A stretch of 64,000 nt of DNA, taken from NCBI GenBank assembly GCA_964593355.1, contig CAZQHM010000023.1, positions 83-64,082 on the forward strand, in the 5' to 3' direction. Position numbers and translations under genes: made by a program. Shown piece after piece: positions 2,618-59,757 of the stretch. Within the stretch, counting starts at the first letter, position 1. Each line of letters begins with the position of its first letter. The notes under the pieces were generated by a model. The model was not told where the DNA came from. It was given only the letters and a program-made list of their open reading frames with translations, and made no database searches. Source of the stretch: an uncultured Myxococcales bacterium (GTDB lineage: Bacteria; Myxococcota_A; UBA9042; CAIXZC01).

Positions 2618-2636
2618 CCCGAAGACACGAAGGCAA

Positions 2637-2653
2637 AACCAGTGACCTTCATT
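2637..2653 (+). repeat. copy 1 of a dispersed 17-nt motif AACCAGTGACCTTCATT
   Basis: Exact 17-mer in the convergent intergenic region after the MYXO-CTERM gene. Flanked by a short inverted repeat ACGAAG...CTTCGT. Confidence 0.6.
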
Positions 2654-2783
2654 ACTTCGTCTGCCTGAAAACGCAGCATCAGGCGGGCTCGGTCCGTTCA
2701 CCTGATCGGCGCTGGAGTATAGGCCGACAGAGCTAATCGGGGTGGCTAAAGCTAATTGGGGTGAAGGTGCTGGCCGGACAGGA

Positions 2784-43578: not shown

Positions 43579-44208
43579 TTACGCCAGAATCATCCCCACA
43601 ACCCACACCACGAACCCAGCCCCTCCAACGACGGCCCAAGGCATCCTTCGGAACTGCTCATCGTCCCAACGCCAGGCAAGCACCCCGAGCCCCGTCACGT
43701 AGGCCAGAAAGCCAAGTCCCATGAGCATCAGCCACCATGCCGAACCCCCTCGGGCCCCCCTCTCAATGGCGGCCCTCGCCTCCTCAACACCAAGAACTAC
43801 GCCGCTCTTTCCGGCGTTGCGCAGCTCCTCGTTCCACTTGGCCAGCCCTTGGGCCAGGCCGGCGTCAGCAAGAGCCAACAGGTCAGAGTGGGGAATCATC
43901 AGCCACGCAGACCCGTGCAGCGCACCCCTGGCATCATCGTAGGCCAGCACCGCCCGGCGAAAGTCTCCCGACTCCATTGCCTCGTTCCCAATCCTCAACA
44001 ACTGCCCCACAGCCTCGGCCTGTACATCCAGCAGCGGCAAGTACCACCGGGCCGACAACAGAAAATGGCGCTGTGCCAGCTCCACATCCCCGGCCTCCAC
44101 CGCATCGTATGCCTTGCCCAGCTCCAGCCGCCCCTCGACAGCCACGCGCACCACCAGGGTCAAAGCCACCAGTCCCACAGCAATGCCTATGATCAAACCG
44201 TTCTTCAA
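43579..44208 (-). CDS. hypothetical membrane protein (N-terminal TM, helical repeat middle, C-terminal TM pair)
   Basis: Start overlaps the permease stop (44205/44208). Last gene of the ABC operon. Confidence 0.5.
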   Translation of the reverse strand: MKNGLIIGIAVGLVALTLVVRVAVEGRLELGKAYDAVEAGDVELAQRHFLLSARWYLPLLDVQAEAVGQLLRIGNEAMESGDFRRAVLAYDDARGALHGSAWLMIPHSDLLALADAGLAQGLAKWNEELRNAGKSGVVLGVEEARAAIERGARGGSAWWLMLMGLGFLAYVTGLGVLAWRWDDEQFRRMPWAVVGGAGFVVWVVGMILA

Positions 44209-45002
44209 ACGAACTCCCTCCGATTAAATATGGCCATTGCTGCCATTATGAAAACTATTATATAACTTAGGCCATATATGCTGGTTGATGCGATAAAGGT
44301 CCAGGGCAACTCAACATCAAGAAGTATCTGCCTCGTAATGTCAAACAAAGTAAGATCCGGAAAAATGTTCACAATCCCACTGCCAATGGGCTTGAGCCAA
44401 GGGAAAGAAGCGAATGGACCCTTGGTCGCCGTCATAAGATCATTAATGAAGTCTACCTGACGACCAACAGCATAAATACCAAAAGTAAAAATACCGGATA
44501 GAACAGGAGAAGAAAAGCTGGAAAACAATATAGCAACGGAGGCGACGATACATAGCTGGATAAAAACCAGAAACAAAGCCTGAAAATGAATACCACGGAG
44601 TATAACACCCTCCGATTTCAATACGAGTAGCCAAGCTCCAGTCATAATTATAAACATAAAAAGCAAAATCGCCAGCAGACCAAGAAATCGACCCAAAACG
44701 AACTCGAAACGTCTAACTGGCTTGGTTAATAGTGCGTATATAGTCTTCTGTGCCAGGTCTTTATATAGTAGAAGAACGCCAACAATGATAGCTATTATTA
44801 CGCCGGTAAATGATATGAAAAATAGTCCGAAGTCAAGAACCACCCTCTGTCGCTGGTCGAAAACCACCATCTGCGAGAGCAACATGGAGCCCGCAATGAG
44901 CACCAGCGCCCCCAGAAGCATCCCGATGAAGGCCCGATTCCGAACCGACTCCCAGAAGGTGCTTCCCGCTACCGCAAATACCCGCTGAAGCATCTGAGTC
45001 AT
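44205..45002 (-). CDS. ABC-2-type transporter permease
   Basis: Six predicted TM helices. Start overlaps the ATPase stop (ATGA, 44999/45002). Confidence 0.7.
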   Translation of the reverse strand: MTQMLQRVFAVAGSTFWESVRNRAFIGMLLGALVLIAGSMLLSQMVVFDQRQRVVLDFGLFFISFTGVIIAIIVGVLLLYKDLAQKTIYALLTKPVRRFEFVLGRFLGLLAILLFMFIIMTGAWLLVLKSEGVILRGIHFQALFLVFIQLCIVASVAILFSSFSSPVLSGIFTFGIYAVGRQVDFINDLMTATKGPFASFPWLKPIGSGIVNIFPDLTLFDITRQILLDVELPWTFIASTSIYGLSYIIVFIMAAMAIFNRREFV

Positions 45003-45937
45003 ATCGCCTCACCTCTCTGTGCTGCCCGAACAAATATCTCCTCCAGGGTCTCGCTGTGCGCCCCAACGGTTTCCAGGATGGCGCCGGCCGTGACCAGACC
45101 CCGGACAACATCGTTGCTTGAAGCCTCAGCACAATGAATACGGACCCGCTCCCCAATCTCCTCCACCTCAAGACCATCGGCACGAAGCCGAACCACAACC
45201 TCGGAGCTCACGCCCAAGGCCACTATCTCCACTATGCGCTTGCCCCGCTTCAACAACTCCTGAGTCTCCCCCTCGTAGAGCAGGCGACCCTTGTTAATCA
45301 TCGCTATCCTGTCGCACAAAAGCTCAACGTCTGAGAGAATGTGCGAAGAGAAGAAGAGGGTCTTCCCCTCTCGATTCAGCTTCTCGATGATATCCTTGAC
45401 CTCCTTGCGCCCGATAGGATCAAGGCCCGTCAACGGCTCATCCAGCACCACAAGCTCAGGGTCGCTTATCAATGCCTGAGCAATGCCGAAACGCTGAACC
45501 ATCCCCTTGGAATACTTCCGCAAAGTCCTGTCCCGAGCGTGACCAAGACCCACCATATTAATCAGGTCGTCAACACGTCGCCGCCGAACCGCCTTGGGCA
45601 CACCGTAGAGCTTTCCGAAGAAGTCCAGAAGCTCGTCGGGCCGAAGTGAATCGTAAAAGTAGGGATGCTCGGGAAGGTATCCGATCTTTCGCCGCGCATC
45701 CAGGTCATCCGGCGAGAGCCCAAACACCCTCACACGTCCCGAAGTAGGCCTGATAAGATCCATGCACATCTTGATGCTGGTCGTCTTGCCGGCCCCGTTT
45801 GGACCTAGAAAACCGAACACCTCACCACGCCTGACGGTGAACGAGAGCCCTCGAACCGCCTCCACCATCTTGCGCTGAAACCCGACCCTGAAGGTCTTCA
45901 CAAGCTGTTCAAGAGAGAGAACTACATCATCAGCCAT
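44999..45937 (-). CDS. ABC transporter ATP-binding protein
   Basis: Walker A GPNGAGKTT, ABC signature (YSKGMVQR), Walker B (LVVLDEP). Confidence 0.85.
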   Translation of the reverse strand: MADDVVLSLEQLVKTFRVGFQRKMVEAVRGLSFTVRRGEVFGFLGPNGAGKTTSIKMCMDLIRPTSGRVRVFGLSPDDLDARRKIGYLPEHPYFYDSLRPDELLDFFGKLYGVPKAVRRRRVDDLINMVGLGHARDRTLRKYSKGMVQRFGIAQALISDPELVVLDEPLTGLDPIGRKEVKDIIEKLNREGKTLFFSSHILSDVELLCDRIAMINKGRLLYEGETQELLKRGKRIVEIVALGVSSEVVVRLRADGLEVEEIGERVRIHCAEASSNDVVRGLVTAGAILETVGAHSETLEEIFVRAAQRGEAI

Positions 45938-45992
45938 ATACTCACCTCATAAGACCGAATTGGCAATCGGTCTAAGTGTGCCACCCATAAAA

Positions 45993-47084
45993 CTACAATA
46001 ATGGGGCTAAGGTGGCTACAACTTCGTCAACGTCCGTATCAGTCATACCGTCGTGTATGGGCAGCGCCAGACCGTCCAGGCCCAGCTGTCGGGAATGATC
46101 CACGCTCCCCAACACGGCCAGACCGCTGAAGGCAGGCTCCGACGGCAAGAAAAACCCGGCAACGGTGCTCTCGATCCCGGCAGCGGCAAACCCGGCAATG
46201 ACAAAAGGCCGCCGCCGCCAATCCTTGAGCCTCACGACCATGGACTGGAAATTGGCCCTGGTGGTTGAGTAACCCCCTGGTATCTCCACCCCTGGCAACG
46301 CCCCCAACAACTCCATGTACCGATGGCCCAGGCTCCGCCGCCGCTCCAGAATCTCGTCGAAGAGCGACAGCTGCCCCAGCCCCACTGCAGCATGAAGCTC
46401 ACTCATGCGGGCATTCACCCCGTGAGAGACAAATCTCCTCTCACCGGCCTCCACTTCCATCCCCAGGTTTCTTATCACCCGGAAATCTGCCGCATCACCC
46501 TCACTGCAGACCACTGCGCCACCCTCTCCCGTCGTGAGGACCTTGCGCGGGTGGAACGACAGAAATGCTAACCCGGAGCCCTCGCAACAGACAAGCTCAC
46601 CCTCGCCAGCACCAAGCCCACAAGCAGCATCCTCCAGCCAGTATCCTGCACCCGAGCGGTGCCAGGCTCCCCACTCGGCAAGCCACCCGGGGATACCGAA
46701 AGAATCAACCGTCATCACAACGGCACCCTCCCCCACGTCGGCTACGTGCGAGGGCCTGGGTGTAAGCCGCTCGGGCTCGATGTCCACCAAAGCCACCTCG
46801 AAACCGGCCAGGGTCGCTGCCGAAGCCACCGACGGGAACGAAAAGGCCGGAAGAATCGCCCGGCGGTATCCGCGTCGACGCAACATCAAGAACGCCAGGT
46901 AGGAGGCCTCGGTACCGCTGGAGACAGCAACAGCGCTCCGTCCCCCCACACGCTGCGACAAGCCCTCCTCAAACTCACGAACGCAGGCCCCGTTTACCAA
47001 CTGCCCGCTGGCCAACACTCCCTCTATCCTTAACAAAGTGGCCGGGGGAACTCTCGGCCTCGCCATACGTATCCTCGGCTCCAT
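45993..47084 (-). CDS. DegT/DnrJ/EryC1/StrS-family PLP-dependent sugar aminotransferase
   Basis: Family-typical N-terminus (LLRIEGVLASGQLVNGACVREFEEGLS) and central PLP-lysine region. ATG at 47084 with a GAGG RBS lying in the upstream gene's 3' end. Confidence 0.8.
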   Translation of the reverse strand: MEPRIRMARPRVPPATLLRIEGVLASGQLVNGACVREFEEGLSQRVGGRSAVAVSSGTEASYLAFLMLRRRGYRRAILPAFSFPSVASAATLAGFEVALVDIEPERLTPRPSHVADVGEGAVVMTVDSFGIPGWLAEWGAWHRSGAGYWLEDAACGLGAGEGELVCCEGSGLAFLSFHPRKVLTTGEGGAVVCSEGDAADFRVIRNLGMEVEAGERRFVSHGVNARMSELHAAVGLGQLSLFDEILERRRSLGHRYMELLGALPGVEIPGGYSTTRANFQSMVVRLKDWRRRPFVIAGFAAAGIESTVAGFFLPSEPAFSGLAVLGSVDHSRQLGLDGLALPIHDGMTDTDVDEVVATLAPLL

Positions 47085-47089
47085 GCGCC

Positions 47090-48046
47090 CTACCTCATGA
47101 GTCCCCGATACCACTCCACCGTCCGACGTAACCCCTCCTCCAGAGCAATCTTGGGCTCAAACCCCAACAACTCCCTGGCCTTGCCGATGTGCGGAATCCG
47201 AAGCTCCACGTCTGGGAAGTTCCACTCCACCTGCCTCAACACTGACTTGGAGCCAGCAATTCGAATAATCTGTTCGGCAAGATTATATATTGTTACTGTT
47301 GCCCGAGGATTGCCAATGTTAAAAGCATTACCAACGGCATTGTCGTTGTCCATAACAACCAGCACGCCATCAATAATATCGTCTATATAACACCAGCTAC
47401 GAATCTGGCTACCATCGTTATGAACAATCACATCTTCGTTTCGAATAGCGCGCACTATGAAGTGGTGAACGGCTCCCTCGCCCACCTGACGCGGCCCATA
47501 GATATTGAACGGCCTTATGGAGCAGGCCGGAACCTTCTTCTCCTTCCAGTAACTGAGCGCCAGGTGCTCCGTGGCCAGCTTGCTCACCGCATAGGTCCAA
47601 CGAGCCTCACCCACAACCCCCAACTGAGACACATCCCCCTCTGTCACCTTGTAGGCGTACCGACCAAAGACCTCGCTGGTGGAAAAATCGATGAACCGCT
47701 CCACACCATCCATCCTGCTCGCAACCTCTAGGGCATTCATGGTGCCCAGAAGACTGACCCTCATGGTCTTCACAGGATGGTTCATAACCGTGTCAACCCC
47801 CGCAATGGAGGCCATGTGCACTATCTGATGAGCCCCTCGACAGGCCTCCTCCAACGCCCCCACGTCAAGGACGTCTCCAACTACCACGGAGACGTTCTTG
47901 TGCCCCTCAAGGGCTGTGTCCTTCAAGGCGTTCCTGTGGAAGTTGTCGAAGAGCACAACCTCGTTATCCTCAACCAGCCGCTGCGCCAGCGATGTCCCAA
48001 TAAACCCGGCACCCCCAGTGATCACGATTCTCTTTCCAGAAATCAT
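47090..48046 (-). CDS. NAD-dependent nucleotide-sugar epimerase/dehydratase (UDP-glucuronate decarboxylase-like SDR)
   Basis: Rossmann motif VITGGAGFIGTSL and the YxxxK catalytic region. 318 aa. ATGA overlap with the upstream gene. Confidence 0.8.
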   Translation of the reverse strand: MISGKRIVITGGAGFIGTSLAQRLVEDNEVVLFDNFHRNALKDTALEGHKNVSVVVGDVLDVGALEEACRGAHQIVHMASIAGVDTVMNHPVKTMRVSLLGTMNALEVASRMDGVERFIDFSTSEVFGRYAYKVTEGDVSQLGVVGEARWTYAVSKLATEHLALSYWKEKKVPACSIRPFNIYGPRQVGEGAVHHFIVRAIRNEDVIVHNDGSQIRSWCYIDDIIDGVLVVMDNDNAVGNAFNIGNPRATVTIYNLAEQIIRIAGSKSVLRQVEWNFPDVELRIPHIGKARELLGFEPKIALEEGLRRTVEWYRGLMR

Positions 48047-48954
48047 CTGCTCTCCTCTTGTGATAGATTGAGCCGGGGCGCCCTTTTTATGCCAAGTACG
48101 TGGTAGAAACTCTGCGGAAGATAGGGTTTGTCTGCCAGCCAGACCTCGTCCTCATCCTCGTATCGCTGCGATAAATCGTCACGCTGTTGCCATCGAAGCT
48201 GAGCCCTCATCTGGAAGCGCTCCTCCTCACCGGAACTATAGTAGGACTTGTAAATTTGATTGACAGCGTCAGATTTCGACAGCCTTGCACCAGTGATATA
48301 AGATATAAACGAATGGCCAACACGGCTATTAGGCAGACTTGCGGCAGTAACAAAATATTTAACAGCATCAATTTTCCGCTGCGCTATCTCTTTATCATTA
48401 AGACCATCATGCTCAATATAGTAGTTGGCGCCAAGATCGTACCAGATCTCCCAGGAATCTGGACAGTAGTGAATGCCAACTTTCTCCATATACAACACTC
48501 GATCGATTATCGGCCGGTACGCACCCGCTGCAAACTTGATCGACTGACTGGCCCACAAGTAGAGCCTGGGGTTGAACGGAAACAGCCCGTCAACCCAATC
48601 CTCACACTCATCAGGAGTCAACAACAGCTGCTCCCCCTCGGGACCTCGGCAATAACCCACGATGGCAGCAAAATAGCGGTCAAGCCAGTCGTGCCTCTTG
48701 GCTCTGCCGAACCGCGATGTGAAGAAGTTGTTCGCCTGCATGAAGAGAAGATCGGAAACCATCGGCTCGAAACCCAGCGACATCGCCCGGATCACGTCGT
48801 TGCTGGGCAACGCCACCATCCCCGTGTCCTGAAAAGTCTCGTTCTCCGACTTCACCCGAAGCAGGTCAAGGTACTCGGTGCGAGAGCCAAGTACCGCAAG
48901 CAAAACCAGCGTTGACGCCACGAGCCAAGCAATTCTCCCTTTGGAACTGCCCAT
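48043..48954 (-). CDS. hypothetical membrane-anchored protein
   Basis: N-terminal TM IAWLVASTLVLLAVLG. First gene of a run of genes with overlapping or near-overlapping junctions. Confidence 0.5.
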   Translation of the reverse strand: MGSSKGRIAWLVASTLVLLAVLGSRTEYLDLLRVKSENETFQDTGMVALPSNDVIRAMSLGFEPMVSDLLFMQANNFFTSRFGRAKRHDWLDRYFAAIVGYCRGPEGEQLLLTPDECEDWVDGLFPFNPRLYLWASQSIKFAAGAYRPIIDRVLYMEKVGIHYCPDSWEIWYDLGANYYIEHDGLNDKEIAQRKIDAVKYFVTAASLPNSRVGHSFISYITGARLSKSDAVNQIYKSYYSSGEEERFQMRAQLRWQQRDDLSQRYEDEDEVWLADKPYLPQSFYHVLGIKRAPRLNLSQEESR

Positions 48955-49180: not shown

Positions 49181-52100
49181 CTATAATGGAATGTTAAGCA
49201 GGTGGGTCTTCGTGCCGCTCTTGCCCTTGCTGCTACTGCCAATGGAGCCACCTACCTGCCCCAACGGCAGGTTGCCTGGGAGTGTTCCCGCTGCCCCGCC
49301 TTCGCCCCCCGGGCCCAGGTCGTACTCCAGATCCAAGATTGTCGGGCCGTACCCCTCGCTGTAAAGCACGGCAACAGAGAGTCCGCCCATGCCCCCTCCG
49401 CCAACGCCGCCTCGTCCGCCCCAACCGCCTGTTCCTCCTTTGCCGCCCTTTCCTGAGCCCTCCAGGCCGGGTCCTCCCTGACCACCACTCCCTCCAAGGC
49501 CGCCTGCGCCCGGACAACCGCCTTTTCCTCCTTTTCCGCCACCCAGGGTGACCACGCTGCAGCCCACCAGCTTGCTCGCGGATTTGTCCAGCACGAACCC
49601 GAAGGAGCCCCCTCCTGAGCCGCCACCAACGCCGCCGCCCCCTCCTGTTCCACCACCACCACCGCCACCACCGGCGCCGCCTTTGTAGTCGCAGAAGGTC
49701 CCTGAGTAGGTTGCACCTCTCCCGCCGCCGCCGCCGCCGCAGCCCGAACTGCCTGGTGCCCCGTCTGCCCCACGAGTGCCTCTCCAGCCAGTGCCAGTGA
49801 GGTACCCTTTGCCCTCACCGCCCTTCCCGTGGGAGCCGTTGGCGCCGTTGACCCCTGGCCCTCCGGCTTCTCCATTCCCGCCTTGTCCACTGCCCTGGTC
49901 TCCGCCGTAGCCCCCCTTGGCCGCCCCTGCCAACCGGTAGCAGCACGAGGGCTCTCCCTGGGCGGATGGATCCCACTGATTAAGGATAGTCGCGTTCCAC
50001 TCGCCCTGAACGCTCATCTTCGAGTTCCCTTGCCCGTACCCGCCACAAATTGTGGACATGGGGTTGCCGCCGAATGTGGCGGAGGGGCATGTGTTGTCGC
50101 TCCAGGGGTGGTAACAGACTCCCCACGTTCCGGTGACGCACCCGTTTCCGCCATTGGCGCCGGACTCACCGCTCACTCCGTCCAGGCCCGCCAGTCCGTT
50201 GTTTCCATCGGCGCCTTTCCTTGCTCTCACCGCGAGGCCATAAAACTCAGCCCCGGCTGAGGCAGAAACAAGGACCCCAATGCAGCTTCCGCCATTACTG
50301 TGGGGCAGCCCCGTCTCCAGATACAAGCGTCCTGCAACGGTCCTGGCCTGGGCAGCGACAACTGTCAGGGTAGTGCTGCCACCCGCAATGAGCGTCGAAC
50401 CAGAGGTAGCCGGTTGCCACCCCTTCTTGGCATCGTAGCCTCCCCACAGCTTCACCCCTTCGGGCAGTTCCAGCGGGCCGTCGTACCAGCCCGTGGTAAC
50501 CGCCACGACCCTCCTCTCCTCGTCGTACTTTGCGGCATTCAAGGCGGCAGCAATGGTCGCCATAGGCTGTGCAACGGTCCCTGGACCACCGTCCCAGCCC
50601 GTGGCAGCATCCACGAAATAGGTAGAGTTCCAGTCGCCGTCGAAGCCGTCGCAGTTGAGGTCGTCCCAATCCAGGTCGGGTTCGTCCACAACCATGGGAT
50701 GAACCTCGGAACGCAGGTCGTCGCAATCGGGCAACATTCCGTGGCACAGGGCGCAACCCTCTTCAACTACGGTGTCGGGCGAGCAGAAGCCGTCGCCGTC
50801 AATATCGATGGCCTCGTCCGCCACGCCGTCACAGTTGTCGTCAGCGCCGTTGCACCTCTCTTTGGCGCCAGGGAACCGGGTCTTGTCAAGGGGCGAGCAA
50901 TCACCGAATCCCAAGGGGCAGACCGCCATCATGCCAGCGCATTTCTCAGAAAGACTTCCCCGACTCAGCAGGCAGAGCAGGTAGTAGACCGGTGGGTCAC
51001 CCGCACAGTAACCGTCCTTGTCTTGATCACATGTCTCATCGGGAACCCCGTCACAGTTGTTGTCAAGGCCATCGCACACCTCTATTCGACCCGGGTTCAT
51101 GAAGGCGTCGGAGTCGTTGCAGTCGATTTGGGGGTAGTGGCATGCGTGGCCAGGTCCCCACACGACGATGTCTTTTGAGCAGTAGCCATCGCCATCCAGG
51201 TCGCACCCCTCATCGGTGCCGCCATCACAATTGTTGTCGATGCCATCACACCACTCATCGGCGAAGGGGTGAACCATTGGGTCGATATCCAGGCAGTCCA
51301 ACTCGGGAAACCTGCATACCAGATCGGGTCCGAAGGCAAGGGCCGGTTTTCCGCAATAGCCGTCTCCATCCAGGTCGCACTCCTCATCCACCTGGCCATC
51401 GCAGTCGTTGTCCTTGCCGTCGCAGGTTTCTATGGCATCAGGGTTTACCAGGACCGAGCTGTCGTCGCAGTCAGCGTTGTTGTCGACCACACCGGCCAAC
51501 GGGACGCACAAACAGATGGCCGTTCCAGCACCGTAGCCGTCGCCGTCCTTGTCGTAGTACCAGGTGGTGCATCCCAACGCCCCCTCCTCGTCGGTTTGCC
51601 CGTCGCAGTCGTCATCGTTGCCGTTGCAGCTCTCCTGCTGCGGCACAGGACCCAGGCACAGCACGCTGCCTGAATCGCACCTGGTAGTGCCGGTGCATGA
51701 GCCGAAGTCATTGCTGTTGGAGCAGGGCTCCTCGGGGACGTCGTCGTCAACGATTCCGTTGCAGTCGTTGTCGACGGCGTCGCAGCTCTCTTGTGCGGGA
51801 ACCGTGGCGTCACAGGCCGAGGCCCCATCTTCGAGGCAAGAGAATCGCCCGCTGCACTCTCCGAACCCATTTCCGACGACGCAGCGCCCATCGAGGCCGA
51901 TATTTGATTCCACGGCTTCACAAGCGCAGTTCTCCAACGAAACCGAACAGAGACCGCCCTGGCCGCATTCGCTACCGTCCTGGCAAGGCTTTTCGTGGGT
52001 ACAACGTGCAGTGCAGTAGAAGAGTCCGCTGCCTTCGTCCATGGAGCAAGCCGAAGCCGAGTCGCCAGTGAAGCGGCGGCACTCGTCGTCATGGCTGCAT

Positions 52101-52543
52101 GGGCGGCAGACGGGGAGATAGTCGCTGATGCAGTAGAGGTCGACCCTCTCCGGGACCGGCGAGCATGTGTATCCCGGCAGACATTCGTCGCTGCAGAGTG
52201 TGGCGCAGAATCGCCCCTCTGCCCCCTCTACACAGAGCCCGCTTCCACAGTCCTGGTCATGGAGGCATGATCCGTCGGGCAAGGGTTCTGCGTCGGATCC
52301 ATCCTGCTCCAAGAGATCGCCAGAGACCGTCTCCTCTGCCTCGAGATCTGGGCCCAGGTGGCCGAGATCGCCAAAGTAGAGGTCGAATTCGGGAGACGTT
52401 TCGGGCTCGGAGAGCAGGTCGTCGGAAGCATCAGAATCATCTTCAACCCAGTTGTCAGCAGCGGGTGTGGTCTGGGCCGGAGAACAGCCCGCTACGGCCA
52501 GGATTAGCGCACATAACCAACGGAAATAATTAGAATTTTTCAT
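49181..52543 (-). CDS. giant secreted lipoprotein with MopE-like CDGxDNDCDG metal-binding repeats and a C-terminal poly-glycine domain
   Basis: MKNSNYFRWLCALILAVAGC lipobox. At least four repeats of [CD]DG.D[ND][DN]CDG..DE.CD.D.DGYC (PF11617-like). Central Gly/Asn-rich beta-helix-like region. C-terminal ~350 aa are mostly G runs (GGAGGGGGGGGTGGGGGVGGGSGGGS...). Confidence 0.7.
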   Translation of the reverse strand: MKNSNYFRWLCALILAVAGCSPAQTTPAADNWVEDDSDASDDLLSEPETSPEFDLYFGDLGHLGPDLEAEETVSGDLLEQDGSDAEPLPDGSCLHDQDCGSGLCVEGAEGRFCATLCSDECLPGYTCSPVPERVDLYCISDYLPVCRPCSHDDECRRFTGDSASACSMDEGSGLFYCTARCTHEKPCQDGSECGQGGLCSVSLENCACEAVESNIGLDGRCVVGNGFGECSGRFSCLEDGASACDATVPAQESCDAVDNDCNGIVDDDVPEEPCSNSNDFGSCTGTTRCDSGSVLCLGPVPQQESCNGNDDDCDGQTDEEGALGCTTWYYDKDGDGYGAGTAICLCVPLAGVVDNNADCDDSSVLVNPDAIETCDGKDNDCDGQVDEECDLDGDGYCGKPALAFGPDLVCRFPELDCLDIDPMVHPFADEWCDGIDNNCDGGTDEGCDLDGDGYCSKDIVVWGPGHACHYPQIDCNDSDAFMNPGRIEVCDGLDNNCDGVPDETCDQDKDGYCAGDPPVYYLLCLLSRGSLSEKCAGMMAVCPLGFGDCSPLDKTRFPGAKERCNGADDNCDGVADEAIDIDGDGFCSPDTVVEEGCALCHGMLPDCDDLRSEVHPMVVDEPDLDWDDLNCDGFDGDWNSTYFVDAATGWDGGPGTVAQPMATIAAALNAAKYDEERRVVAVTTGWYDGPLELPEGVKLWGGYDAKKGWQPATSGSTLIAGGSTTLTVVAAQARTVAGRLYLETGLPHSNGGSCIGVLVSASAGAEFYGLAVRARKGADGNNGLAGLDGVSGESGANGGNGCVTGTWGVCYHPWSDNTCPSATFGGNPMSTICGGYGQGNSKMSVQGEWNATILNQWDPSAQGEPSCCYRLAGAAKGGYGGDQGSGQGGNGEAGGPGVNGANGSHGKGGEGKGYLTGTGWRGTRGADGAPGSSGCGGGGGGRGATYSGTFCDYKGGAGGGGGGGGTGGGGGVGGGSGGGSFGFVLDKSASKLVGCSVVTLGGGKGGKGGCPGAGGLGGSGGQGGPGLEGSGKGGKGGTGGWGGRGGVGGGGMGGLSVAVLYSEGYGPTILDLEYDLGPGGEGGAAGTLPGNLPLGQVGGSIGSSSKGKSGTKTHLLNIPL

Positions 52544-52785
52544 GTTGACGCTCCCCTTTGTGGAGTACCGAATCGGTTGTCATCATCGCCGGGTGAACAG
52601 GCCGCCAGAATAGGCGGCGGGTCATCTCGGGCTTCCCACTCCCTGTGTCGTTGCCCGGGCTGGGCAGAAAGAAAAAATCGACACGAAGGTCTGCACTTCC
52701 TGAATAGTCGAAGAAGTATGGGCGTCTCGTTGCCCCGCTTCCGACCCAGTGCATCCGGGTCAATCAGCTCAAAAAGGAGGCGGAA

Positions 52786-53640
52786 ATGAAAAAGCTAGCG
52801 TTGTTTGCTGCCCTGTTTTCCTTCGTGTTTTCAACCGAGGCGCTTGCTTCGGAAACCAGCGGGTCAGGGGAGTCATCGGTAGAGAGCCAGGGCGCCACAG
52901 AAGCGAGACCGCCTCACAAGAAGGTCAAGGTTCAGCGTCGCCGGGCAGCGGATTCTTATCGGCCGGTGAGACCAGCGCCCTATCGCAGCCGAGTCATCGT
53001 GCACAGGCCGGTGGTGGTTAGCGATCCGGTTGTCTACCATGCAACCCCGAGAAACAGAGTGACCAAGAAGCAGTCGTCGGACGAGGGCGGAATTGCCATC
53101 GGCTTCCGGGCCTCGGGCATAAGCACCGAAGGCAGCAAGCTCAACCTGGCCTCCAGCGAGAACTCAACGCTGGGCGGGGTTGGGTTCCACGTGCGAGGGG
53201 CCCTGGACAGGCACTGGGCCATGGAGGTAGCCATAGACTTCCTCTATTCGAGCACAACGCTGCTGGACCAGACCACGGTGCCCCTTATGATTTCGGGTAT
53301 CTACTCTTTCGTTCCCAAGGGGCCCGTTCGTCCCTACGGCCTGGTTGGGGCAGGCATCCACATGACGGCGCTGGAGTACTACAACGGCTTCCGGTACGAC
53401 ATGGTTGAGCTGGCGGCCCAAGCGGGTGTTGGAATCGACTTCAGGCTTTCAAGAGAGTTCGGCATTCAGTTGGATTTGAGGTTCCTCGGGGTCTACAAGA
53501 ATCTGGACGACGAGGGAGACATCTACGCCAACTGCCTGCTGGATCTGGGTGCCCAGAACCCCTTCTGCGCCAGCGTCTCCACGGAGGACAAGTTCAACGT
53601 GGGTACGCAGTTCATGGTCGGGGCGAACTGGTACTTCTAA
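52786..53640 (+). CDS. outer-membrane beta-barrel protein (OmpA/OmpW/Opa-like barrel)
   Basis: GGAGG RBS. Signal peptide MKKLALFAALFSFVFSTEALA. Amphipathic beta-strands. C-terminus ...GANWYF ends in Phe. Confidence 0.6.
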   Translation: MKKLALFAALFSFVFSTEALASETSGSGESSVESQGATEARPPHKKVKVQRRRAADSYRPVRPAPYRSRVIVHRPVVVSDPVVYHATPRNRVTKKQSSDEGGIAIGFRASGISTEGSKLNLASSENSTLGGVGFHVRGALDRHWAMEVAIDFLYSSTTLLDQTTVPLMISGIYSFVPKGPVRPYGLVGAGIHMTALEYYNGFRYDMVELAAQAGVGIDFRLSREFGIQLDLRFLGVYKNLDDEGDIYANCLLDLGAQNPFCASVSTEDKFNVGTQFMVGANWYF

Positions 53641-55112: not shown

Positions 55113-57143
55113 ATGGCTCACGAATCTTGGTTGTCTCAGATCGCCTCAATGCAGGATCGGAAGGAATTTCAGGAGCTCTCGTGGGAGGGCACCTTTGAGC
55201 AGTACCTTGAGTTGGTCAAGGAGAATCCCAGGGTTTTGCGGTCGGCCTATCAGCGGCTCTACGACATGGTGATATCGTATGGTTTCGAGGAGCGGGTAGA
55301 GCTGAAGAAGACGGTGGTTCACTACAACTTCTTTGACGATCCGAGGCACGGCGGGAAGGACGCCGTCTTCGGGCTGGACGTGTCGTTGATGAAGCTGGTG
55401 AACGTGCTTCGGGCGGCGGCATACAGGTATGGACCCGAGAAGCGGATCTTGCTGTTACACGGCCCCGTGGGGTCTGCAAAGAGCACCATCGTCAGGTTGC
55501 TCAAGAAGGGATTGGAGGACTACAGCCGCACCTCGGAAGGGGCACTCTACACACTGGAGTGGACTATGCCTGACGGCGAGGTTGTGCCTTGCCCGCTGCA
55601 CGAGGAGCCGCTGAACATCATCCCGTTGGAGCATCGTGGGGCAGTGCTTGAGAAGCTGGACTTGACCAGCGTGGACTATCCCGTGGTGCTGGACAAAGAC
55701 CTGTGCCCCGTGTGCCGTTTCAACCAGCGTTCGCTCATGCAGGAGTACGAAGGTGACTGGGCCAAGGTTGTGGAGCATGTGAAGGTGAGGCGTCTGATTT
55801 TCTCGGAGCAGGATCGAGTTGGGGTTGGGACGTTCCAGCCCAAGGACGAGAAGAATCAGGATTCAACGGAGCTGACGGGGGATATCAACTACCGGAAGAT
55901 AGCAGTCTACGGGTCGGATTCGGACCCCAGGGCCTTCAACTTCGACGGGGAGTTCTGTGTGGCCAACCGGGGGTTGATAGAGTTCGTGGAGGTGCTGAAG
56001 TTGGACGTGGCGTTCCTTTACGACCTTCTGGGAGCAAGCCAGGAGCAGAAGATCAAGCCGAAGAAGTTTGCGCAGGCGGACATTGACGAGGTGATAATCG
56101 GTCACACCAACGAGCCAGAGTTCCGGAAGTTGCAGAGCAACGAGTACATGGAGGCGCTTCGGGACAGAACGGTGAAGATCGACATCCCGTACATTACGAG
56201 ATTCACAGAAGAGACTCATATTTATAAGAAAGATTTCGGGCCAAAGAAGGTTGGCCGTGTTCATGTGGCACCGCACACCTTGGAAATGGCGGCGTTGTGG
56301 GCGGTGTTGACGAGGTTGACGGATCCAAAGAAGCATAACATCAATGTGCTGCAAAAGGCGAAACTGTATGATGGCAGAATGCTGCCTGGTTTCACCGAGG
56401 ATTCGATCAAGGAGTTGAGAAAGGAGTCGGACCGTGAGGGGATGGACGGGATATCGCCTCGTTACGTTCAGGATCGAATCAGCGAGGCGCTGGCGTCAGA
56501 GCAGACGGCGAACATGATCAATCCCTTCCTGATTCTGAACAGAATGGAGAGTGGATTGAAGCATCACAGTCTGATTTCCAGCGAGGATGTCAGGCGTCGG
56601 TTCCGGGATCTGCTGGCGCTGGTTAAAGAGGAGTACGAGGACATTATCAAGGATGAGGTTCGCAGGGCCATTTCGGCCGACGACGAGGCCATCGCCCGTC
56701 TGTGCAGTAATTACATTGACAACGTTAAGGCATACACACAGAAAGAGAAAGTCAAGAATAGATACACAAATCAATATGAGGAGCCGGATGATCGTCTGAT
56801 GCGTTCGATTGAGGAGAAAGTTGGGATTCCAGATAATAGAAAAGATGATTTCCGGCGGGAGATCATGAATTTCATCGGGGCGTTGGCTTTGGAGGGGCGC
56901 TCCTTTGATTACACGACGAACGAACGTTTGAGGAAGGCTCTGGAGTTGAAGCTGTTTGAGGACCAGAAGGATTCTATCAAGCTGGCCTCGCTGGTCTCTT
57001 CGGTTGTGGACAAGAAGACGCAGGAGAAGATCGACATAGTTAAGAACCGTCTGATCCGGAATTTCGGATACAACGAGGAGTCGGCCACGGACGTTCTGAA
57101 CTATGTTGCCAGCATCTTTGCCAGGGGCGATCAGAAAGGGTAG
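55113..57143 (+). CDS. prkA: PrkA-family serine protein kinase (AAA+ PrkA)
   Basis: GGAGG RBS. 676 aa. Walker [14 protein letters not shown] and PrkA-typical N- and C-terminal domains. Confidence 0.9.
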
Positions 57144-57151
57144 GTAGCGTC

Positions 57152-58258
57152 ATGGCGATCCAGAACATACAGAAGGATCACGCCAGGTTTCGGGACATCG
57201 TCAAGGGTGCTGTGAGGCGGAACCTGAAGGAGTACATAAGCCGTGGCGAGATTCTGGGCAAGGAGGGGGGGAAGACGGTTAAGATTCCCATCCCGGAGAT
57301 TGAGATCCCGAGGTTGAAGTTCAAGGGTGAGGGGGAGTCGGGGGTTGGGCAGGGAGATGGTGAGGAGGGGGACGTATTGGGGGAGGAGAAGGCCCCCGGT
57401 TCTGGCGAAGCTGGGCAAGATGAGGGTCAGCACGAAGTGGAGGCAGAGGTTTCTATTGAGGAGCTGGCCCAGATATTAGGAGAGGAGCTATCGCTGCCCA
57501 GAATCAAACCCAGGGGCAAATCCACAATAAGGGTCCCCACGCAGAAGTTGAGGGGTATAGCCAGAGTTGGTCCTGAGTCGTTGAAGCATTTCCGGCGCAG
57601 TTTCAGTGCGGCGTTGAAGCGACAGATAGCCGCTGGGATGTATAATTACGATGATCCTGTAATTATAGTAACGAGAGAAGATCGCAGATATAAGAGTTTT
57701 AAAGAACAACAGAGCCAAGAGAGCAATGCCGTCATTATTTACATGATGGACGTATCCGGCTCAATGGGTGAAGAACAGAAGGAGATGGTTCGTATTGAAT
57801 CCTTTTGGATTGACACCTGGCTGCGACACAACTACAGGGGTATTGTCTCTCGCTATATAATTCACGATGCAAAGGCGAGGGAGGTTGACAGAGAAACCTT
57901 CTTTAGAACGAAAGAGAGTGGCGGTACGATGATATCAAGTGCCTACACTTTGGCAGCGGAGATCATGGCAGCGGATTATCCATCCGAGGAGTGGAATATT
58001 TATCCATTTCATTTTTCGGACGGGGATAACTGGTCTGGGGATGATACATCTAAATGTCTTCAGCTGCTCACCGACAAAATACTCCCTAATTGCAATCTGT
58101 TCTGTTATGGCCAGGTTCACAGCCCCTATGGGTCGGGGCAGTTCATCAAGGATTTGGCCAAGTCATTCGGGGAGGATGATCGAGTGGTTTTGTCGGAGAT
58201 ACCGGACCGTGACGGGATAATCAACTCCATCAAGGAGTTTTTCCAGAAGGGGAAGTAA
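57152..58258 (+). CDS. YeaH/YhbH-family protein (DUF444, vWA-like)
   Basis: MIDAS-like DVSGSMG motif. Lies 8 nt after prkA; the canonical middle gene of the prkA-yeaH-spoVR module. Confidence 0.85.
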   Translation: MAIQNIQKDHARFRDIVKGAVRRNLKEYISRGEILGKEGGKTVKIPIPEIEIPRLKFKGEGESGVGQGDGEEGDVLGEEKAPGSGEAGQDEGQHEVEAEVSIEELAQILGEELSLPRIKPRGKSTIRVPTQKLRGIARVGPESLKHFRRSFSAALKRQIAAGMYNYDDPVIIVTREDRRYKSFKEQQSQESNAVIIYMMDVSGSMGEEQKEMVRIESFWIDTWLRHNYRGIVSRYIIHDAKAREVDRETFFRTKESGGTMISSAYTLAAEIMAADYPSEEWNIYPFHFSDGDNWSGDDTSKCLQLLTDKILPNCNLFCYGQVHSPYGSGQFIKDLAKSFGEDDRVVLSEIPDRDGIINSIKEFFQKGK

Positions 58259-59757
58259 TGAATCTGCCGCTGGATCTATGGACGATGAAGGAGGAGATTC
58301 GGCAGTATGCGAAGGATTACGGGCTGGATTTCTTCGAGGTCATCTACGAGATGGTCAGCTTCGAGAAGGTGAACGAGATTGCCTCGTACGGGGGGTTTCC
58401 GGTGCGGTATCCGCACTGGCGATTCGGGATGGACTTCGAGAGGATGTCGAAGAGCCATCTTTACGGCCTGCACAAAATATATGAGATGGTTATTAATAAC
58501 GATCCATGTTATGCGTATCTTGTAGAGGGGAGCAGTAATATAGACTACAAGTTAATTATGGCACATGTTTATGGCCACAGCGATTTCTTTAAGAACAATA
58601 TGTGGTTCGCTCACACGAATAGGAAGATGATGGATGAGATGGCGAATCACGCAACGAGGATTCGTCGATATATCGATAAGTACGGGATAGAAAGGGTTGA
58701 GAAGTTCATAGACGCTGTTTTGTCTGTAGATAACATGGTGGATTATCATTTCCCGGACAACGCCGGCAAGCGATCGGTCAGGGTCGAGGGTGAGGAGGGA
58801 GGCAAGGAGGCTGACCATCGCTTCTCAGGGGTTCAGGCCCCGGAGTATCTTGAGGAGTATCTCTATCCTGATGAGTACATGAAGAAACAGCAGAAGAGAG
58901 CTGATGACAAGGAGAGGCGGAGTCGGCGGGTTCCTGAGGAGCCCATGAAGGATGTGCTCTACTTCCTTGGGGAGCATGGGGCGTTGGAGCCATGGGAGAG
59001 GGATGTTCTGTCCATGTTGCGGGAGGAGTCTCTCTATTTTGCTCCGCAAGGCCAGACGAAAATCATGAATGAGGGTTGGGCAGCCTATTGGCATAGTAAG
59101 ATTTTGACAGAGAAGGCTCTAAAGAGTAGTGAGATAATCGATTTTGCAGATCAGCACTCCAAGGCAGTTGCAGTATACGGTAAGAACATAAATCCATACA
59201 AGCTTGGTCTTGAGCTCTTCCGCGATATCGAGGATCGGTGGAACAAGGGCAAGTTCGGGAAGGAGTGGGAGGAGTGCAGCGATGCCAGAGAGAGGCGCCA
59301 TTGGGATCGGGGCTTCGAGCTGGGGCGAAAGAAGATTTTCGAGGTGAGGAAGGTGTATAACGACGTCAGTTTCCTCGATGAGTTCTTGACGCCGGAATTC
59401 TGTCTGGAGAACAAGTTATTTACCTGGATCTTCAGAGAACAGTACGATAAATACATAATTGACTCGAAGGACTTCTCTGCCATCAAAGAAAGCCTGCTTT
59501 CTCAAATCACAAATTTTGGTCATCCAATTGTTAGAGTGTTCGACTCCAATCATCAGAATCGAGGGGAGCTGCTGCTGTTGCACACACACGAGGGGCGGGA
59601 TCTGGACCCGAAGTATGCGAACCACGTGCTCAAGAATCTTGTGGCGATCTGGAAACGGCCGGTCCATATTCTCACGGTGTCGCAGCGTGAGGAGCAGTTG
59701 TGGAGCCACAACGGCAAGGAGTTCAGCGCTCAGCGATATGCGCACCCACAGATGTAG
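58258..59757 (+). CDS. SpoVR/YcgB-family protein
   Basis: 499 aa. Start overlaps the upstream stop. Conserved SpoVR N- and C-domains. Confidence 0.85.
   Translation: MNLPLDLWTMKEEIRQYAKDYGLDFFEVIYEMVSFEKVNEIASYGGFPVRYPHWRFGMDFERMSKSHLYGLHKIYEMVINNDPCYAYLVEGSSNIDYKLIMAHVYGHSDFFKNNMWFAHTNRKMMDEMANHATRIRRYIDKYGIERVEKFIDAVLSVDNMVDYHFPDNAGKRSVRVEGEEGGKEADHRFSGVQAPEYLEEYLYPDEYMKKQQKRADDKERRSRRVPEEPMKDVLYFLGEHGALEPWERDVLSMLREESLYFAPQGQTKIMNEGWAAYWHSKILTEKALKSSEIIDFADQHSKAVAVYGKNINPYKLGLELFRDIEDRWNKGKFGKEWEECSDARERRHWDRGFELGRKKIFEVRKVYNDVSFLDEFLTPEFCLENKLFTWIFREQYDKYIIDSKDFSAIKESLLSQITNFGHPIVRVFDSNHQNRGELLLLHTHEGRDLDPKYANHVLKNLVAIWKRPVHILTVSQREEQLWSHNGKEFSAQRYAHPQM

Follow-up and report, generated by a model that had tools for sequence, protein, structure and literature searches.

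MopE of Methylococcus capsulatus and CorA of Methylomicrobium album are secreted or surface-associated proteins with a common C-x-D-G-x-D-N-x-C-D-G / DSNCDGxD motif, which underlies the Pfam model PF11617 (“Cu-binding_MopE”). Copper binding and copper-repressed expression characterize proteins of this type. The Cu(I) site of MopE* consists of His132, His203 and kynurenine-130 (from Trp130), the protein is stabilized by Ca2+, and in the crystal its first 46 residues lack order or are missing (PMC3423442). PF11617 has been reported to lack specificity (PMC6189053). In the outer-membrane exchange receptor TraA/TraB of Myxococcus xanthus, a surface protein with a lipid anchor carries its recognition domain at the far end of a stalk of Cys-rich tandem repeats, and a genetically linked partner is associated with the outer membrane (PMC3325183). 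The DUF1565/pectin-lyase-fold surface proteins, such as Leptospira LIC10774 and LIC10365 and phage tailspikes, carry the cap motif FVxxxxGxDxxxGTxxxPxxTIxxA...VxVxxGxY followed by the rungs of a right-handed beta-helix. In the PPII/polyglycine-II (PGII) bundles, which include the snow-flea AFP (3BOG), phage S16 gp38 (6F45), the ALK/LTK GRD (7N00/7NX1), Bxb1 gp33 and predicted PE_PGRS structures, antiparallel helices with a PPII backbone (phi about -75, psi about +150) pack together, Gly is conserved at every third position, the x residues are variable and point outward, and the chain is ordered without alpha or beta secondary structure. Mycobacterial PE_PGRS proteins have a PE domain at the N-terminus and a polymorphic GGAGGX tandem array, are rich in Gly and GGxGG units, and are secreted by ESX systems.

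The window, a 64,000-nucleotide stretch of DNA from an uncultured Myxococcota-affiliated bacterium, carries a lipoprotein gene that bears comparison with these systems (Table 1). The reading frame starts with an ATG, has a Shine–Dalgarno-like GGGGAG element 6 nt upstream, and continues without interruption over exactly the interval given in the original prediction, encoding the 1120 aa stated there, which was made from the sequence alone. About 25 collinear orthologues (1082–1166 aa, 38–50% identity) retain the lipobox Cys, a K/R-poor acidic tether, all 62 Cys in the N-terminal half and over 90 Gly positions in the C-terminal half. A protein with 100% identity (P0001) is encoded on a metagenome contig of 74 kb. 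No tandem repeat in the DNA of the gene is longer than 30 bp × 2 and the orthologues are collinear and equal in length, revealing no assembly problem. The collinear orthologues, the conserved Cys and Gly columns and the absence of repeat collapse mark this as a genuine gene evolving under selection. The original prediction held for the ORF, the lipobox, the PF11617 repeats, the Cys modules and the neighboring outer-membrane protein (OMP), and failed where it described the C-terminus as poly-glycine and, ahead of the tail, as Gly/Asn-rich. On balance, we lean toward the view that the gene product is a lipid-anchored, stalked surface binding protein.

Table 1. Features of the lipoprotein locus (positions within the window; residues refer to the lipoprotein).
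Feature	Coordinates	Strand	Basis
Lipoprotein gene, 1120 aa, complete	49181..52543	(-)	ORF listing; stop codon 49181-49183
Signal peptide with lipobox, residues 1-20, MKNSNYFRWLCALILAVAG followed by C	52484..52543	(-)	Read from sequence
Acidic tether, residues 21-92, no Lys/Arg, net charge -22	52268..52483	(-)	Sequence, orthologues
N-terminal Cys-rich modules, no family assigned, residues 93-250	51794..52267	(-)	Cys (nearly) invariant
PF11617 (“Cu-binding_MopE”) Cys/Asp repeat stalk, residues 251-617	50693..51793	(-)	PF11617, repeat register
Start of C-terminal module (DxNCDGxDG, DUF1565-like cap helix, first beta-helix rungs), residues 618-774	50222..50692	(-)	AF2, Foldseek
Glycine-scaffold body, residues 775-1120	49184..50221	(-)	Gly period-3, AF2, conservation
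Divergent intergenic region between lipoprotein and OMP genes, 242 bp	52544..52785		Coordinates
Outer-membrane beta-barrel protein, 284 aa, candidate partner	52786..53640	(+)	PF13505 36.4 bits

The design logic is that of TraA/TraB: a lipid anchor, a Cys-rich tandem-repeat stalk, a distal domain and a linked OMP partner (PMC3325183). However, the polarity is reversed, because TraA is anchored by a C-terminal MYXO-CTERM and the lipoprotein by an N-terminal lipobox. The repeats also differ (TIGR04201 in TraA, PF11617 here), as do the heads (PA14 in TraA, a Gly-scaffold module here) and the partners: TraB is an OmpA-like peptidoglycan-binding protein encoded in the same operon, whereas the partner here is a small beta-barrel encoded by a divergent gene. 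A TraA-type receptor was rejected, since Pfam and NCBIfam searches gave no PA14, TIGR04201 or MYXO-CTERM match at E≤1.

The signal peptide, as read from the sequence, ends in the lipobox L-A-V-A-G-C20, which satisfies the consensus [LVI][ASTVI][GAS]C, and the Cys is aligned in 25 of the 26 family members. From this conserved lipobox, the protein would be exported by Sec and lipidated at Cys20. The +2 residue of the orthologues is S, G, E, D or Q and never K, which is consistent with sorting to the outer membrane and probably onward to the cell surface. The lipid anchor would be followed by a flexible, strongly acidic tether of ~70 aa, which corresponds in the orthologues to a 40–103-aa linker with a net charge of -6 to -25 and 0–5 Lys plus Arg. 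Next would come a stalk of ~525 aa, holding out a distal head of ~480 aa made up of a short motif, a cap with the first beta-helix rungs and a glycine-scaffold body.

The body was described in the original prediction as a poly-glycine tail with G runs of 8–12 and GGxGG units; it is neither poly-glycine nor of low complexity. Residues 781–1120 contain 37% Gly, the G runs are of 8, 6, 5 and 4, and GGxGG units are present as predicted (24 overlapping GG.GG matches). Across 222 homologues, Gly was conserved column by column at 93 positions (≥75%), and autocorrelation of the conserved Gly gave a count of 66 at lag 3, compared with 30–35 at lags 1, 2, 4 and 5. The body comprises seven runs of 7–9 Gly-x-x triplets (21–27 residues) and one run of 4, together with three strand elements and eight Cys that are conserved within the family; the spacing of strand pairs in the module is fixed, with a mode of 76 residues. 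AF2 gave pLDDT values of 93.8 and 94.6, with a pTM of 0.86 in both models, although AF2 may overstate its confidence for repeats of this Gly-rich kind; the higher value was obtained with residues 775–1120 modelled alone. By these models, the C-terminal half is a confidently folded domain and not a floppy poly-glycine tail, and it ends in a beta-strand, not in a TM tag. DSSP assigned the Gly runs (pLDDT 95–98) to “other” among the classes H, E and other, which is compatible with PPII but not diagnostic of it. Foldseek found no fold match in the PDB for residues 775–1120 alone (best E 8.7, TM 0.06), and the solved PGII/PPII bundles 3BOG, 6F45, 7N00 and 9D93 showed no sequence or Foldseek similarity to the body. 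We infer that the Gly-x-x runs are probably PGII/PPII-type helices. Conservation and the AF2 model show a core of invariant triplets with the variable x residues facing outward, as in the known bundles; like S16 gp38, the body is placed distally in an adhesin-like protein. Compared with those bundles, it is much larger and of fixed length; it is joined to a beta-helix cap, and beta-strand pairs and disulfides alternate with its Gly runs. The predicted resemblance to PE-PGRS proteins proved to be compositional only: the lipoprotein has no PE domain, contains a single GGAGG motif, has a fixed and not a polymorphic architecture, and enters by a Sec/lipoprotein signal in a diderm Myxococcota host.

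Upstream of the body, residues 618–774 were modelled as regular short strands with pLDDT 91–98. Foldseek returned partial matches of this cap region to pectin methylesterases, GH136 and tailspikes (probability 0.94–1.0 at TM ≤0.21, and TM ≤0.22 over all matches) over about 150–200 residues. Sequence matches to pectinesterases were weak, as was the LIC10774 match in the window protein and its relatives. DUF1565 (PF07602) did not match the window protein at E≤1; in relatives it matched the cap only, with 19.2–19.5 bits, below the cutoff of 20.3. By these weak matches, the cap motif and first rungs resemble those of the DUF1565/pectin-lyase-fold proteins, with sequence scores under the family thresholds, but the likeness ends after ~150 residues and the remaining ~350 residues of the module are a Gly-triplet body. 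Regular rungs do not extend throughout the domain, and residues 775–1120 modelled alone matched no beta-helix. Of the Gly/Asn-rich, beta-helix-compatible region in the original prediction, the beta-helix element stood and the Asn-rich part did not (1.5% Asn in residues 641–774, 4% in 775–1120).

The module of ~480 aa combines a DxNCDGxDG motif, the DUF1565-like right-handed beta-helix cap and a fixed-length body with Gly-x-x periodicity, and it is not confined to this family; the motif precedes the cap in 67 of 91 module proteins. An exhaustive search found it in at least 1280 clusters at 50% identity (E≤1e-3; 226 at E≤1e-10) from Myxococcota, Gemmatimonadota and Actinomycetota, and it has no Pfam or NCBIfam model. 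In many proteins of 470–650 aa it constitutes the whole mature protein, and in others it follows Ig-like, Big_2, CARDB, choice-of-anchor-D or MopE domains; the stand-alone genes of Haliangium and Archangium have no common neighborhood. By this distribution, the head is an autonomous, widespread and so far unnamed module. The domain combination called unusual in the original prediction is accordingly one of many, and its Gly-rich part is not an added tail but belongs with the cap to one recurrent unit. We put forward tentatively, as a possibility and not as the expected outcome, that body and cap constitute an undescribed fold and family, with ~90 invariant Gly, probably stacked PGII-type helices on a beta-helix, serving as a surface-protein head in at least three phyla. 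If true, it would rank as the first large family of PGII-type domains in diderm bacteria and, like phage gp38, as a scaffold that nature uses for display. Such a Gly-rich C-terminus would usually be set aside as low-complexity sequence or mislabelled PE-PGRS, yet it belongs to a large unmodelled domain family whose fold is confidently predicted and which has no relative of solved structure. A new Pfam family and one structure would provide annotation for more than 1000 protein clusters, for which the stand-alone homologues of Sorangium, Haliangium and Archangium offer cultivable sources. Such a structure would test the glycine-scaffold (PGII-type) architecture as a general bacterial solution to surface recognition and could yield a scaffold for protein design.

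The similarity of the cap and first rungs to pectin methylesterases, GH136, GH87 and phage depolymerase tailspikes, the name DUF1565 carried by relatives, and a glycan-biosynthesis and ABC-2 export cluster downstream in this window only raise the alternative that the protein is a stalk-tethered surface enzyme from the pectin-lyase beta-helix superfamily, acting on polysaccharides as a lyase, esterase or hydrolase. We consider this improbable. The structural matches are limited to ~150–200 residues at low TM, the Gly-rich body is unlike any beta-helix enzyme, and the downstream cluster is not conserved at other loci. In addition, beyond residue 651 no Asp, Glu, His, Arg or Lys was conserved above 75% in the 222 homologues (R711 reached exactly 75%), and in the body none reached 50%; the only conserved non-Gly residues of the module are structural ones of the cap together with S980 and S1056. 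This indicates that no catalytic constellation is conserved and, together with the variable exposed positions, that the head is most likely a binding surface, putatively for a glycan, another cell surface or a matrix. It may be likened to phage gp38-type adhesins, in which a Gly-rich scaffold displays variable loops. The surface, matrix or adhesion role suggested in the original prediction is the best fit.

It is likewise improbable that the protein is a self-assembling fibre or matrix component, a trimer or polymer held together by its Gly-x-x runs as triple helices of the collagen kind or as PGII stacks between molecules. The Gly period of three in its eight runs, PDB matches of the module profile to collagens and to a collagen-like fibril protein, a top BFVD match annotated as collagen triple-helix repeat, and the Cys-rich proteins typical of extracellular matrices (PMC3325183) all agree with this reading. 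However, the PDB collagen matches are driven by composition (domain score 9 bits, bias 70, i-Evalue 5.8), the BFVD match has a TM of 0.08, the domain length is fixed across the family, and AF2 modelled the monomer as compact, with high confidence. Bacterial collagen-like proteins have long uninterrupted (Gly-X-Y)n, rich in Pro or charged residues, that form a triple helix. The runs here are short and interrupted, the longest having 9 triplets, with 4% Pro and many GG doublets; on these grounds and the biased matches, a bacterial collagen-like protein was rejected.

The stalk bears on the copper-binding function implied by the name of PF11617. The model matched the full protein with 148 bits in 6 stretches (cutoff 27), and residues 251–617 scanned alone with 160.8 bits in 7 stretches. 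The original prediction had counted at least four MopE-like motifs; five C[DN]GxD[ND][DN]CDG cores were found, at residues 306, 374, 432, 490 and 564, with a variant at 254. It had also noted further EGF-like Cys modules. Additional Cys modules do occur in residues 93–250, but the EGF-like label was not supported, as neither Pfam nor NCBIfam gave a match for this segment with thresholds relaxed to E≤10 and E≤1, respectively. Residues 93–631 contain 62 Cys, an even number, and all are (nearly) invariant in the 26 orthologues, which argues for disulfides and not free thiolates. Conservation in the stalk is restricted to Cys, Asp, Asn, Glu and Gly, and the net charge of the stalk is -62 to -96 (about -80 for residues 251–617). 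On chemical grounds, conserved oxygen ligands (Asp, Asn, Glu) would point to Ca2+-type stabilization and not to a copper site. The repeats of residues 251–617 therefore look like disulfide/Ca2+-type modules, and the stalk may be pictured as disulfide-knotted Cys/Asp-rich modules, including 5–7 PF11617 repeats, putatively stabilized by Ca2+.

That the protein is instead a MopE/CorA-like surface copper scavenger, with repeats that would capture Cu for delivery to the cell, perhaps via the neighboring OMP, is very unlikely. The PF11617 matches are strong, MopE* (2vov_A) is the best PDB sequence match of the family profile (E 0.0016), and such an acidic multi-repeat region could conceivably bind cations in bulk. 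Nevertheless, the match is confined to MopE* residues 14–52, most of which belong to the N-terminal part without ordered density in the crystal, far from the His132/His203/kynurenine-130 site (PMC3423442), and residues 91–640 have no His, Met or Trp conserved at ≥70% in the 26 orthologues. The copper-binding domain of MopE/CorA has no homology in the lipoprotein and its ligands have no counterpart. Among surface proteins of Myxococcota the motif is ubiquitous and occurs in many architectures; of 8000 candidates that were scored, 5852 reached E≤0.001, mostly through a PF11617-type repeat. By sequence, the PF11617 model is a short Cys/Asp motif from the disordered N-terminus of MopE*, without the copper site, and in the lipoprotein, which is probably surface-associated like MopE/CorA, it is a multi-copy stalk element. 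The metal scavenging offered in the original prediction was not supported, and “Cu-binding_MopE” matches, present in thousands of Myxococcota proteins annotated “putative metal-binding”, should not count as evidence of copper handling.

The remaining reading, that the Gly-rich part is a frame artefact, frameshift, collapsed repeat or disordered PE_PGRS-like tail, is consistent with a GC content of up to 0.69 and overlapping alternative-frame ORFs in the 3′ part of the gene, and with the label “PE-PGRS family protein” on one Archangium homologue, but is effectively refuted by conservation that is specific to position, both in the 26 orthologues and in the wider set of 222 homologues, by the identical protein called on independent records, the lack of DNA tandem repeats and of a PE domain, the single GGAGG motif, and the confident predicted fold.

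The divergent outer-membrane barrel gene noted in the original prediction is real, and the same divergent arrangement occurs at related loci. A scan for the sigma-70 consensus found no site in the intergenic region. The OMP also matched TIGR04565 (OMP_myx_plus) weakly. Its orthologues (40–50% identity) adjoin lipoprotein orthologues at ~10 loci; the pairing is not obligatory, as locus L089 has the OMP without the lipoprotein, and loci L002 and L086 the lipoprotein without the OMP. Genes for SerRS, an MS channel and an M24 peptidase are also syntenic, and the OMP linkage may represent lineage synteny. The OMP has an 81-aa basic N-terminal extension rich in Val, His and Arg; extension net charges range from +5 to +23, with 3–13 His. 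The charge complementarity with the acidic tether and stalk, together with the ~10 paired loci, makes the OMP a candidate partner, speculatively one that would dock or display them.

The ORF of the lipoprotein was recovered at exactly the position originally predicted. A Shine-Dalgarno-like element (GGGGAG) lies 6 nt 5′ of its ATG, and the N-terminus of the product is, as had been proposed, a signal peptide ending in a lipobox (MKNSNYFRWLCALILAVAG, followed by the lipobox Cys). Of 75 Cys residues, 62 fall within residues 93–631. The lipoprotein would be processed by Sec and Lgt/Lsp, and its putative lipid anchor would be followed by a flexible acidic tether, a rigid disulfide/Ca2+-type stalk and a distal head, whose Gly-built scaffold would present a binding surface made up of variable side chains. 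On balance, we lean towards a tethered, stalked surface binding protein, adhesin- or receptor-like and probably located at the outer membrane or cell surface, which the small, divergently encoded outer-membrane protein (OMP) may dock or display as a partner. Stalked surface lipoproteins and adhesins are a known kind of protein. Myxobacterial TraA, a lipid-anchored protein whose Cys-rich stalk carries a recognition head and which has an outer-membrane-associated partner (PMC3325183), has the same design as that proposed here, but the lipoprotein carries no TraA-defining domain.

Positions of the lipoprotein gene, its neighbours and related loci (window coordinates unless a contig is named)
Feature	Position	Strand	Remarks
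Lipoprotein ORF	49181–52543	−	ATG start, 1120 aa
Half-motif D-x-N-C-D-G-x-D-G	50624–50692		lipoprotein residues 618–640
OMP gene	52786–53640	+	related copies: L003 6934–7797, L084 4856–5800, L085 4913–5824
Downstream same-strand cluster	44205–48954	−	tightly packed, some genes overlapping or abutting
PrkA/DUF444/SpoVR three-gene set	55113–59757	+	just past the M24 peptidase gene
ORF, 1013 aa	25758–28799	−	no Pfam match at E ≤ 1e-5
ORF, 640 aa	59876–61798	+	no Pfam match at E ≤ 1e-5
ORF, 469 aa	1208–2617	+	no Pfam match at E ≤ 1e-5
ORF, 723 aa	4801–6972		HYDIN/VesB-like Ig domain only
Locus lacking the lipoprotein gene	L089 (ERZ890953 NODE-4689) 1736–3461		OMP and flanking genes kept
Stand-alone head module P0367 (Archangium gephyra)	L088 6001–7599		532 aa

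The head is an autonomous and widespread domain. When residues 636–1120 were searched exhaustively with HMMER against 1.84 billion cluster representatives, 1280 proteins were retrieved at E ≤ 1e-3, of which 226 reached E ≤ 1e-10. The majority of the retrieved proteins matched the whole query in a single stretch. Many relatives are just 470–650 aa long and consist of a signal peptide and the head module, and in others the module follows Ig-like or choice-of-anchor-D domains, Big_2, CARDB, fn3 or MopE repeats. The Sorangium protein P0308 (463 aa) is another stand-alone homologue. Named carriers include Haliangium ochraceum (“DUF1565 domain-containing protein”), several Sorangium strains, A. gephyra, and Gemmatimonadota and Actinomycetota MAGs; cluster look-up supplied no further name or taxonomy except [quoted passage not shown]. 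The stand-alone protein of A. gephyra, a cultured myxobacterium, is annotated as “PE-PGRS family protein”, likely a misannotation from Gly content. The stand-alone genes of Haliangium and Archangium had no neighbours in common, and neither PHROGs nor tblastn of 50,697 phage genomes gave any indication of a phage origin. The module is covered by neither a Pfam nor an NCBIfam model; below-threshold matches, to DUF1565 (19.2–19.5 bits; cutoff 20.3) and the Leptospira LIC10774 family, were confined to its first ~60 residues. In 67 of 91 head-module proteins, a DxNCDGxD half-motif occurs immediately before the cap, also in stand-alone proteins that have no PF11617 stalk. This half-motif, which is also what aligns to the N-terminus of MopE* (DSNCDGRD), is therefore part of the module. 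It may represent an evolutionary seed for expansion of the stalk repeats, or it may cap the helix as a Ca2+ site.

AlphaFold2 predicted a confident fold for residues 618–1120 (46-sequence alignment; mean pLDDT 93.8, pTM 0.86) and for residues 775–1120 alone (62 sequences; pLDDT 94.6, pTM 0.86). The models give the first ~160 residues a cap helix together with short, regular strands, and the remainder was almost devoid of DSSP helix or strand at a pLDDT of 95–98, the exceptions in the Gly-rich body being two strand pairs, a short hairpin, a terminal strand and four short helices. In proteins whose motifs could be located by pattern, strand pair A precedes strand pair B by a modal 76 residues and strand pair B lies ~53–61 residues from the C-terminus, an architecture of fixed length. 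Among 222 homologues aligned by HMM, Gly is conserved at ≥75% in 93 columns. These Gly residues recur with a period of 3 (66 counts at lag 3 versus 30–35 at neighbouring lags), forming seven runs of 7–9 Gly-x-x triplets and one of 4, which may adopt PGII geometry. The predicted Gly-rich C-terminus was borne out by composition (37% Gly in the last 340 residues), with G runs of 8, 6, 5 and 4 instead of 8–12; the region is not Asn-rich as had been described, and the supposed PE-PGRS-like poly-Gly tail is better described as a domain of fixed length, confidently predicted to be folded, with conserved Gly columns.

Foldseek comparison of the whole module with the PDB gave only partial matches (TM ≤ 0.21, 150–200 columns), to pectin methylesterases, GH136 and GH87 enzymes, AlgE4, PfbA and phage tailspikes. 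The beta-helix cap alone is thus matched; a BFVD search agreed (DUF1565 and parallel beta-helix phage proteins, TM ~0.2). The beta-helix originally proposed was supported for the cap only, the Gly-rich body alone being essentially unmatched among 350,542 PDB chains (two at E > 8, TM 0.06). Glycan enzymes among these targets raise the alternative that the head is itself a beta-helix glycan enzyme. We consider this improbable, because the matches cover the cap only and catalytic residues are not conserved: the sole conserved non-Gly positions in the 222 homologues are D628, D632, F643, V644, D651, P660, A671, V680, Y687, W709, S980 and S1056, among which no candidate catalytic constellation was found. 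A collagen-like or self-assembling fibre is about equally improbable. Matches of that kind were obtained, but the Gly runs are short, interrupted and Pro-poor, and the monomer models are compact. The match to the “spindlefibril/axialfibril” structures 8zxl/9ius (E 6e-13) was compositional, involving a (QGAPGAPGS)n collagen-like repeat (domain score 9, bias 70); the best BFVD match, “collagen triple helix repeat” (E 9e-8), was rejected at TM 0.08 and rmsd 52; and direct searches of PDB sequences with the lipoprotein and its Gly-rich segment returned only synthetic Gly-Ser linkers. The cap is similar to DUF1565, and the body has neither a named family nor a solved structural match. The family to which the head belongs is widespread and has no model; it may represent a new fold and deserves a family definition and a structure.

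The stalk matches PF11617 (“Cu-binding_MopE”, a 30-residue motif model), the one Pfam family found in the lipoprotein, with 148 bits in 6 stretches (160.8 bits in 7 stretches when residues 251–617 were scanned alone). At least four MopE-like copies had been predicted; five full C[DN]GxD[ND][DN]CDG cores were found, at residues 306, 374, 432, 490 and 564, and a variant at 254. Comparable motifs are known from teneurins and algal gametolysins (PMC3278476). The family name and the best match of a 26-orthologue profile against all PDB sequences, MopE* (2vov), could indicate copper scavenging, but this very unlikely reading fails both homology and ligand tests. The match has an E-value of only 0.0016 and aligns only MopE* residues 14–52 (“DCNDFAPTIHPGAAE..DSNCDGRD”). 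In MopE*, which is stabilised by Ca2+, the high-affinity Cu(I) site is formed by His132, His203 and kynurenine-130. In the crystal, the 46 residues at the N-terminus are either disordered or missing, and weak Cu(II) binding has been linked to no more than the first 24 (PMC3423442). Across the orthologue family, residues 91–640 conserve Cys (an even number), Asp, Asn, Glu and Gly and no His, Met or Trp at ≥70%. Sequence conservation thus shows the MopE copper site to be absent, and the repeats are probably disulfide-knotted, Ca2+-stabilised stalk modules. The Cys-rich residues 93–250, previously described as EGF-like, matched no Pfam or NCBIfam family even at permissive thresholds. A full-length alignment scan of genome contigs was swamped by generic PF11617-repeat proteins, with matches stopping near residue 650, so that it provided neither orthologue synteny nor reliable taxonomy. 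Such proteins were extremely common in aquatic Myxococcota MAGs (L004–L083), among which the MopE part is ordinary; several carrier contigs from automated MAG submissions bear the names “uncultured Enterobacteriaceae”, “Rickettsiales” or “Chryseobacterium”, apparently through taxonomic mislabelling.

The lipoprotein gene is real and conserved. An identical protein is encoded on a 74-kb metagenome contig (ENA ERZ27257504 k141_16108), and ~25 orthologues (1082–1166 aa, 38–50% identity) are collinear with it over the alignment. The Cys residues of 93–631 are all invariant or near-invariant, as are dozens of repeat Asp and >90 Gly positions (777–1110). Except in one apparently truncated sequence, all orthologues retain the lipobox Cys, the acidic tether (40–103 aa, 0–5 Lys+Arg, net charge −6 to −25) and the hyper-acidic repeat region (net −62 to −96). 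An artefact or a disordered PGRS-like tail is excluded for practical purposes by this conservation. Assembly collapse in the Gly-rich repeat had also been a concern, and there is no sign of it because the longest DNA tandem repeat in the gene is 30 bp × 2. UvrD of the window was closest to “Deltaproteobacteria bacterium” MAGs of the FJ109 series (52%), which also encode a lipoprotein orthologue, followed by Myxococcales MAGs (43%) and Anaeromyxobacter (40%); judged from these affinities, the host belongs to an uncultured, deep Myxococcota-affiliated lineage.

The adjoining divergent barrel gene was confirmed, 242 bp away, as encoding a 284-aa PF13505 OMP with a weak match to TIGR04565 (“OMP_myx_plus”); promoter and terminator consensus scanning of the intergenic region gave nothing useful. 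OMP orthologues share 40–50% identity, invariant Cys250 and Cys261, and a C-terminal QFMVGANxYF. The two Cys residues lie in a late barrel loop. An N-terminal extension (81 aa in the window, 81–100 aa in the set), which no family describes, is Val/His/Arg-rich and built of repeated (R/K/H)VVVH-type units, e.g. VVVHGRGPVVVAGPVVHHRHAVVVHSAPVVVH. It is basic in every orthologue (net +5 to +23, 3–13 His), and its charge is complementary to that of the acidic tether and stalk. The divergent OMP lies beside four further lipoprotein orthologues (P0007, P0015, P0006 and P0018), and, of nine metagenome loci identified through the OMP, six carried the lipoprotein gene and two of the remaining three were too short to judge. 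The pairing is not obligatory, and part of its signal may be lineage synteny, because the flanking SerRS, MS-channel and M24 peptidase genes are also syntenic. L089, from a related genome, keeps these three genes and the OMP and lacks the lipoprotein gene between MS-channel and OMP. Comparative work could make use of this natural presence/absence polymorphism. The OMP is not beside two orthologues, P0019 (L002) and P0017 (L086). These adjoin a paired SurA-like chaperone and PPIase as well as a Ser/Thr kinase accompanied by a PEGA-domain protein, a second recurrent envelope-related context.

The downstream cluster encodes a 303-aa membrane protein (no Pfam or NCBIfam match), an NAD-dependent epimerase/dehydratase, a DegT/DnrJ aminotransferase, an ABC ATPase and an ABC-2 permease. 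Its content resembles that of a unit for glycan (amino-sugar) synthesis and export, and it is not beside the orthologues at other loci. Unannotated proteins of the envelope type are numerous in the window, and its PrkA/DUF444/SpoVR set is a stress or sporulation-associated operon of the yeaG-yeaH-ycgB type.
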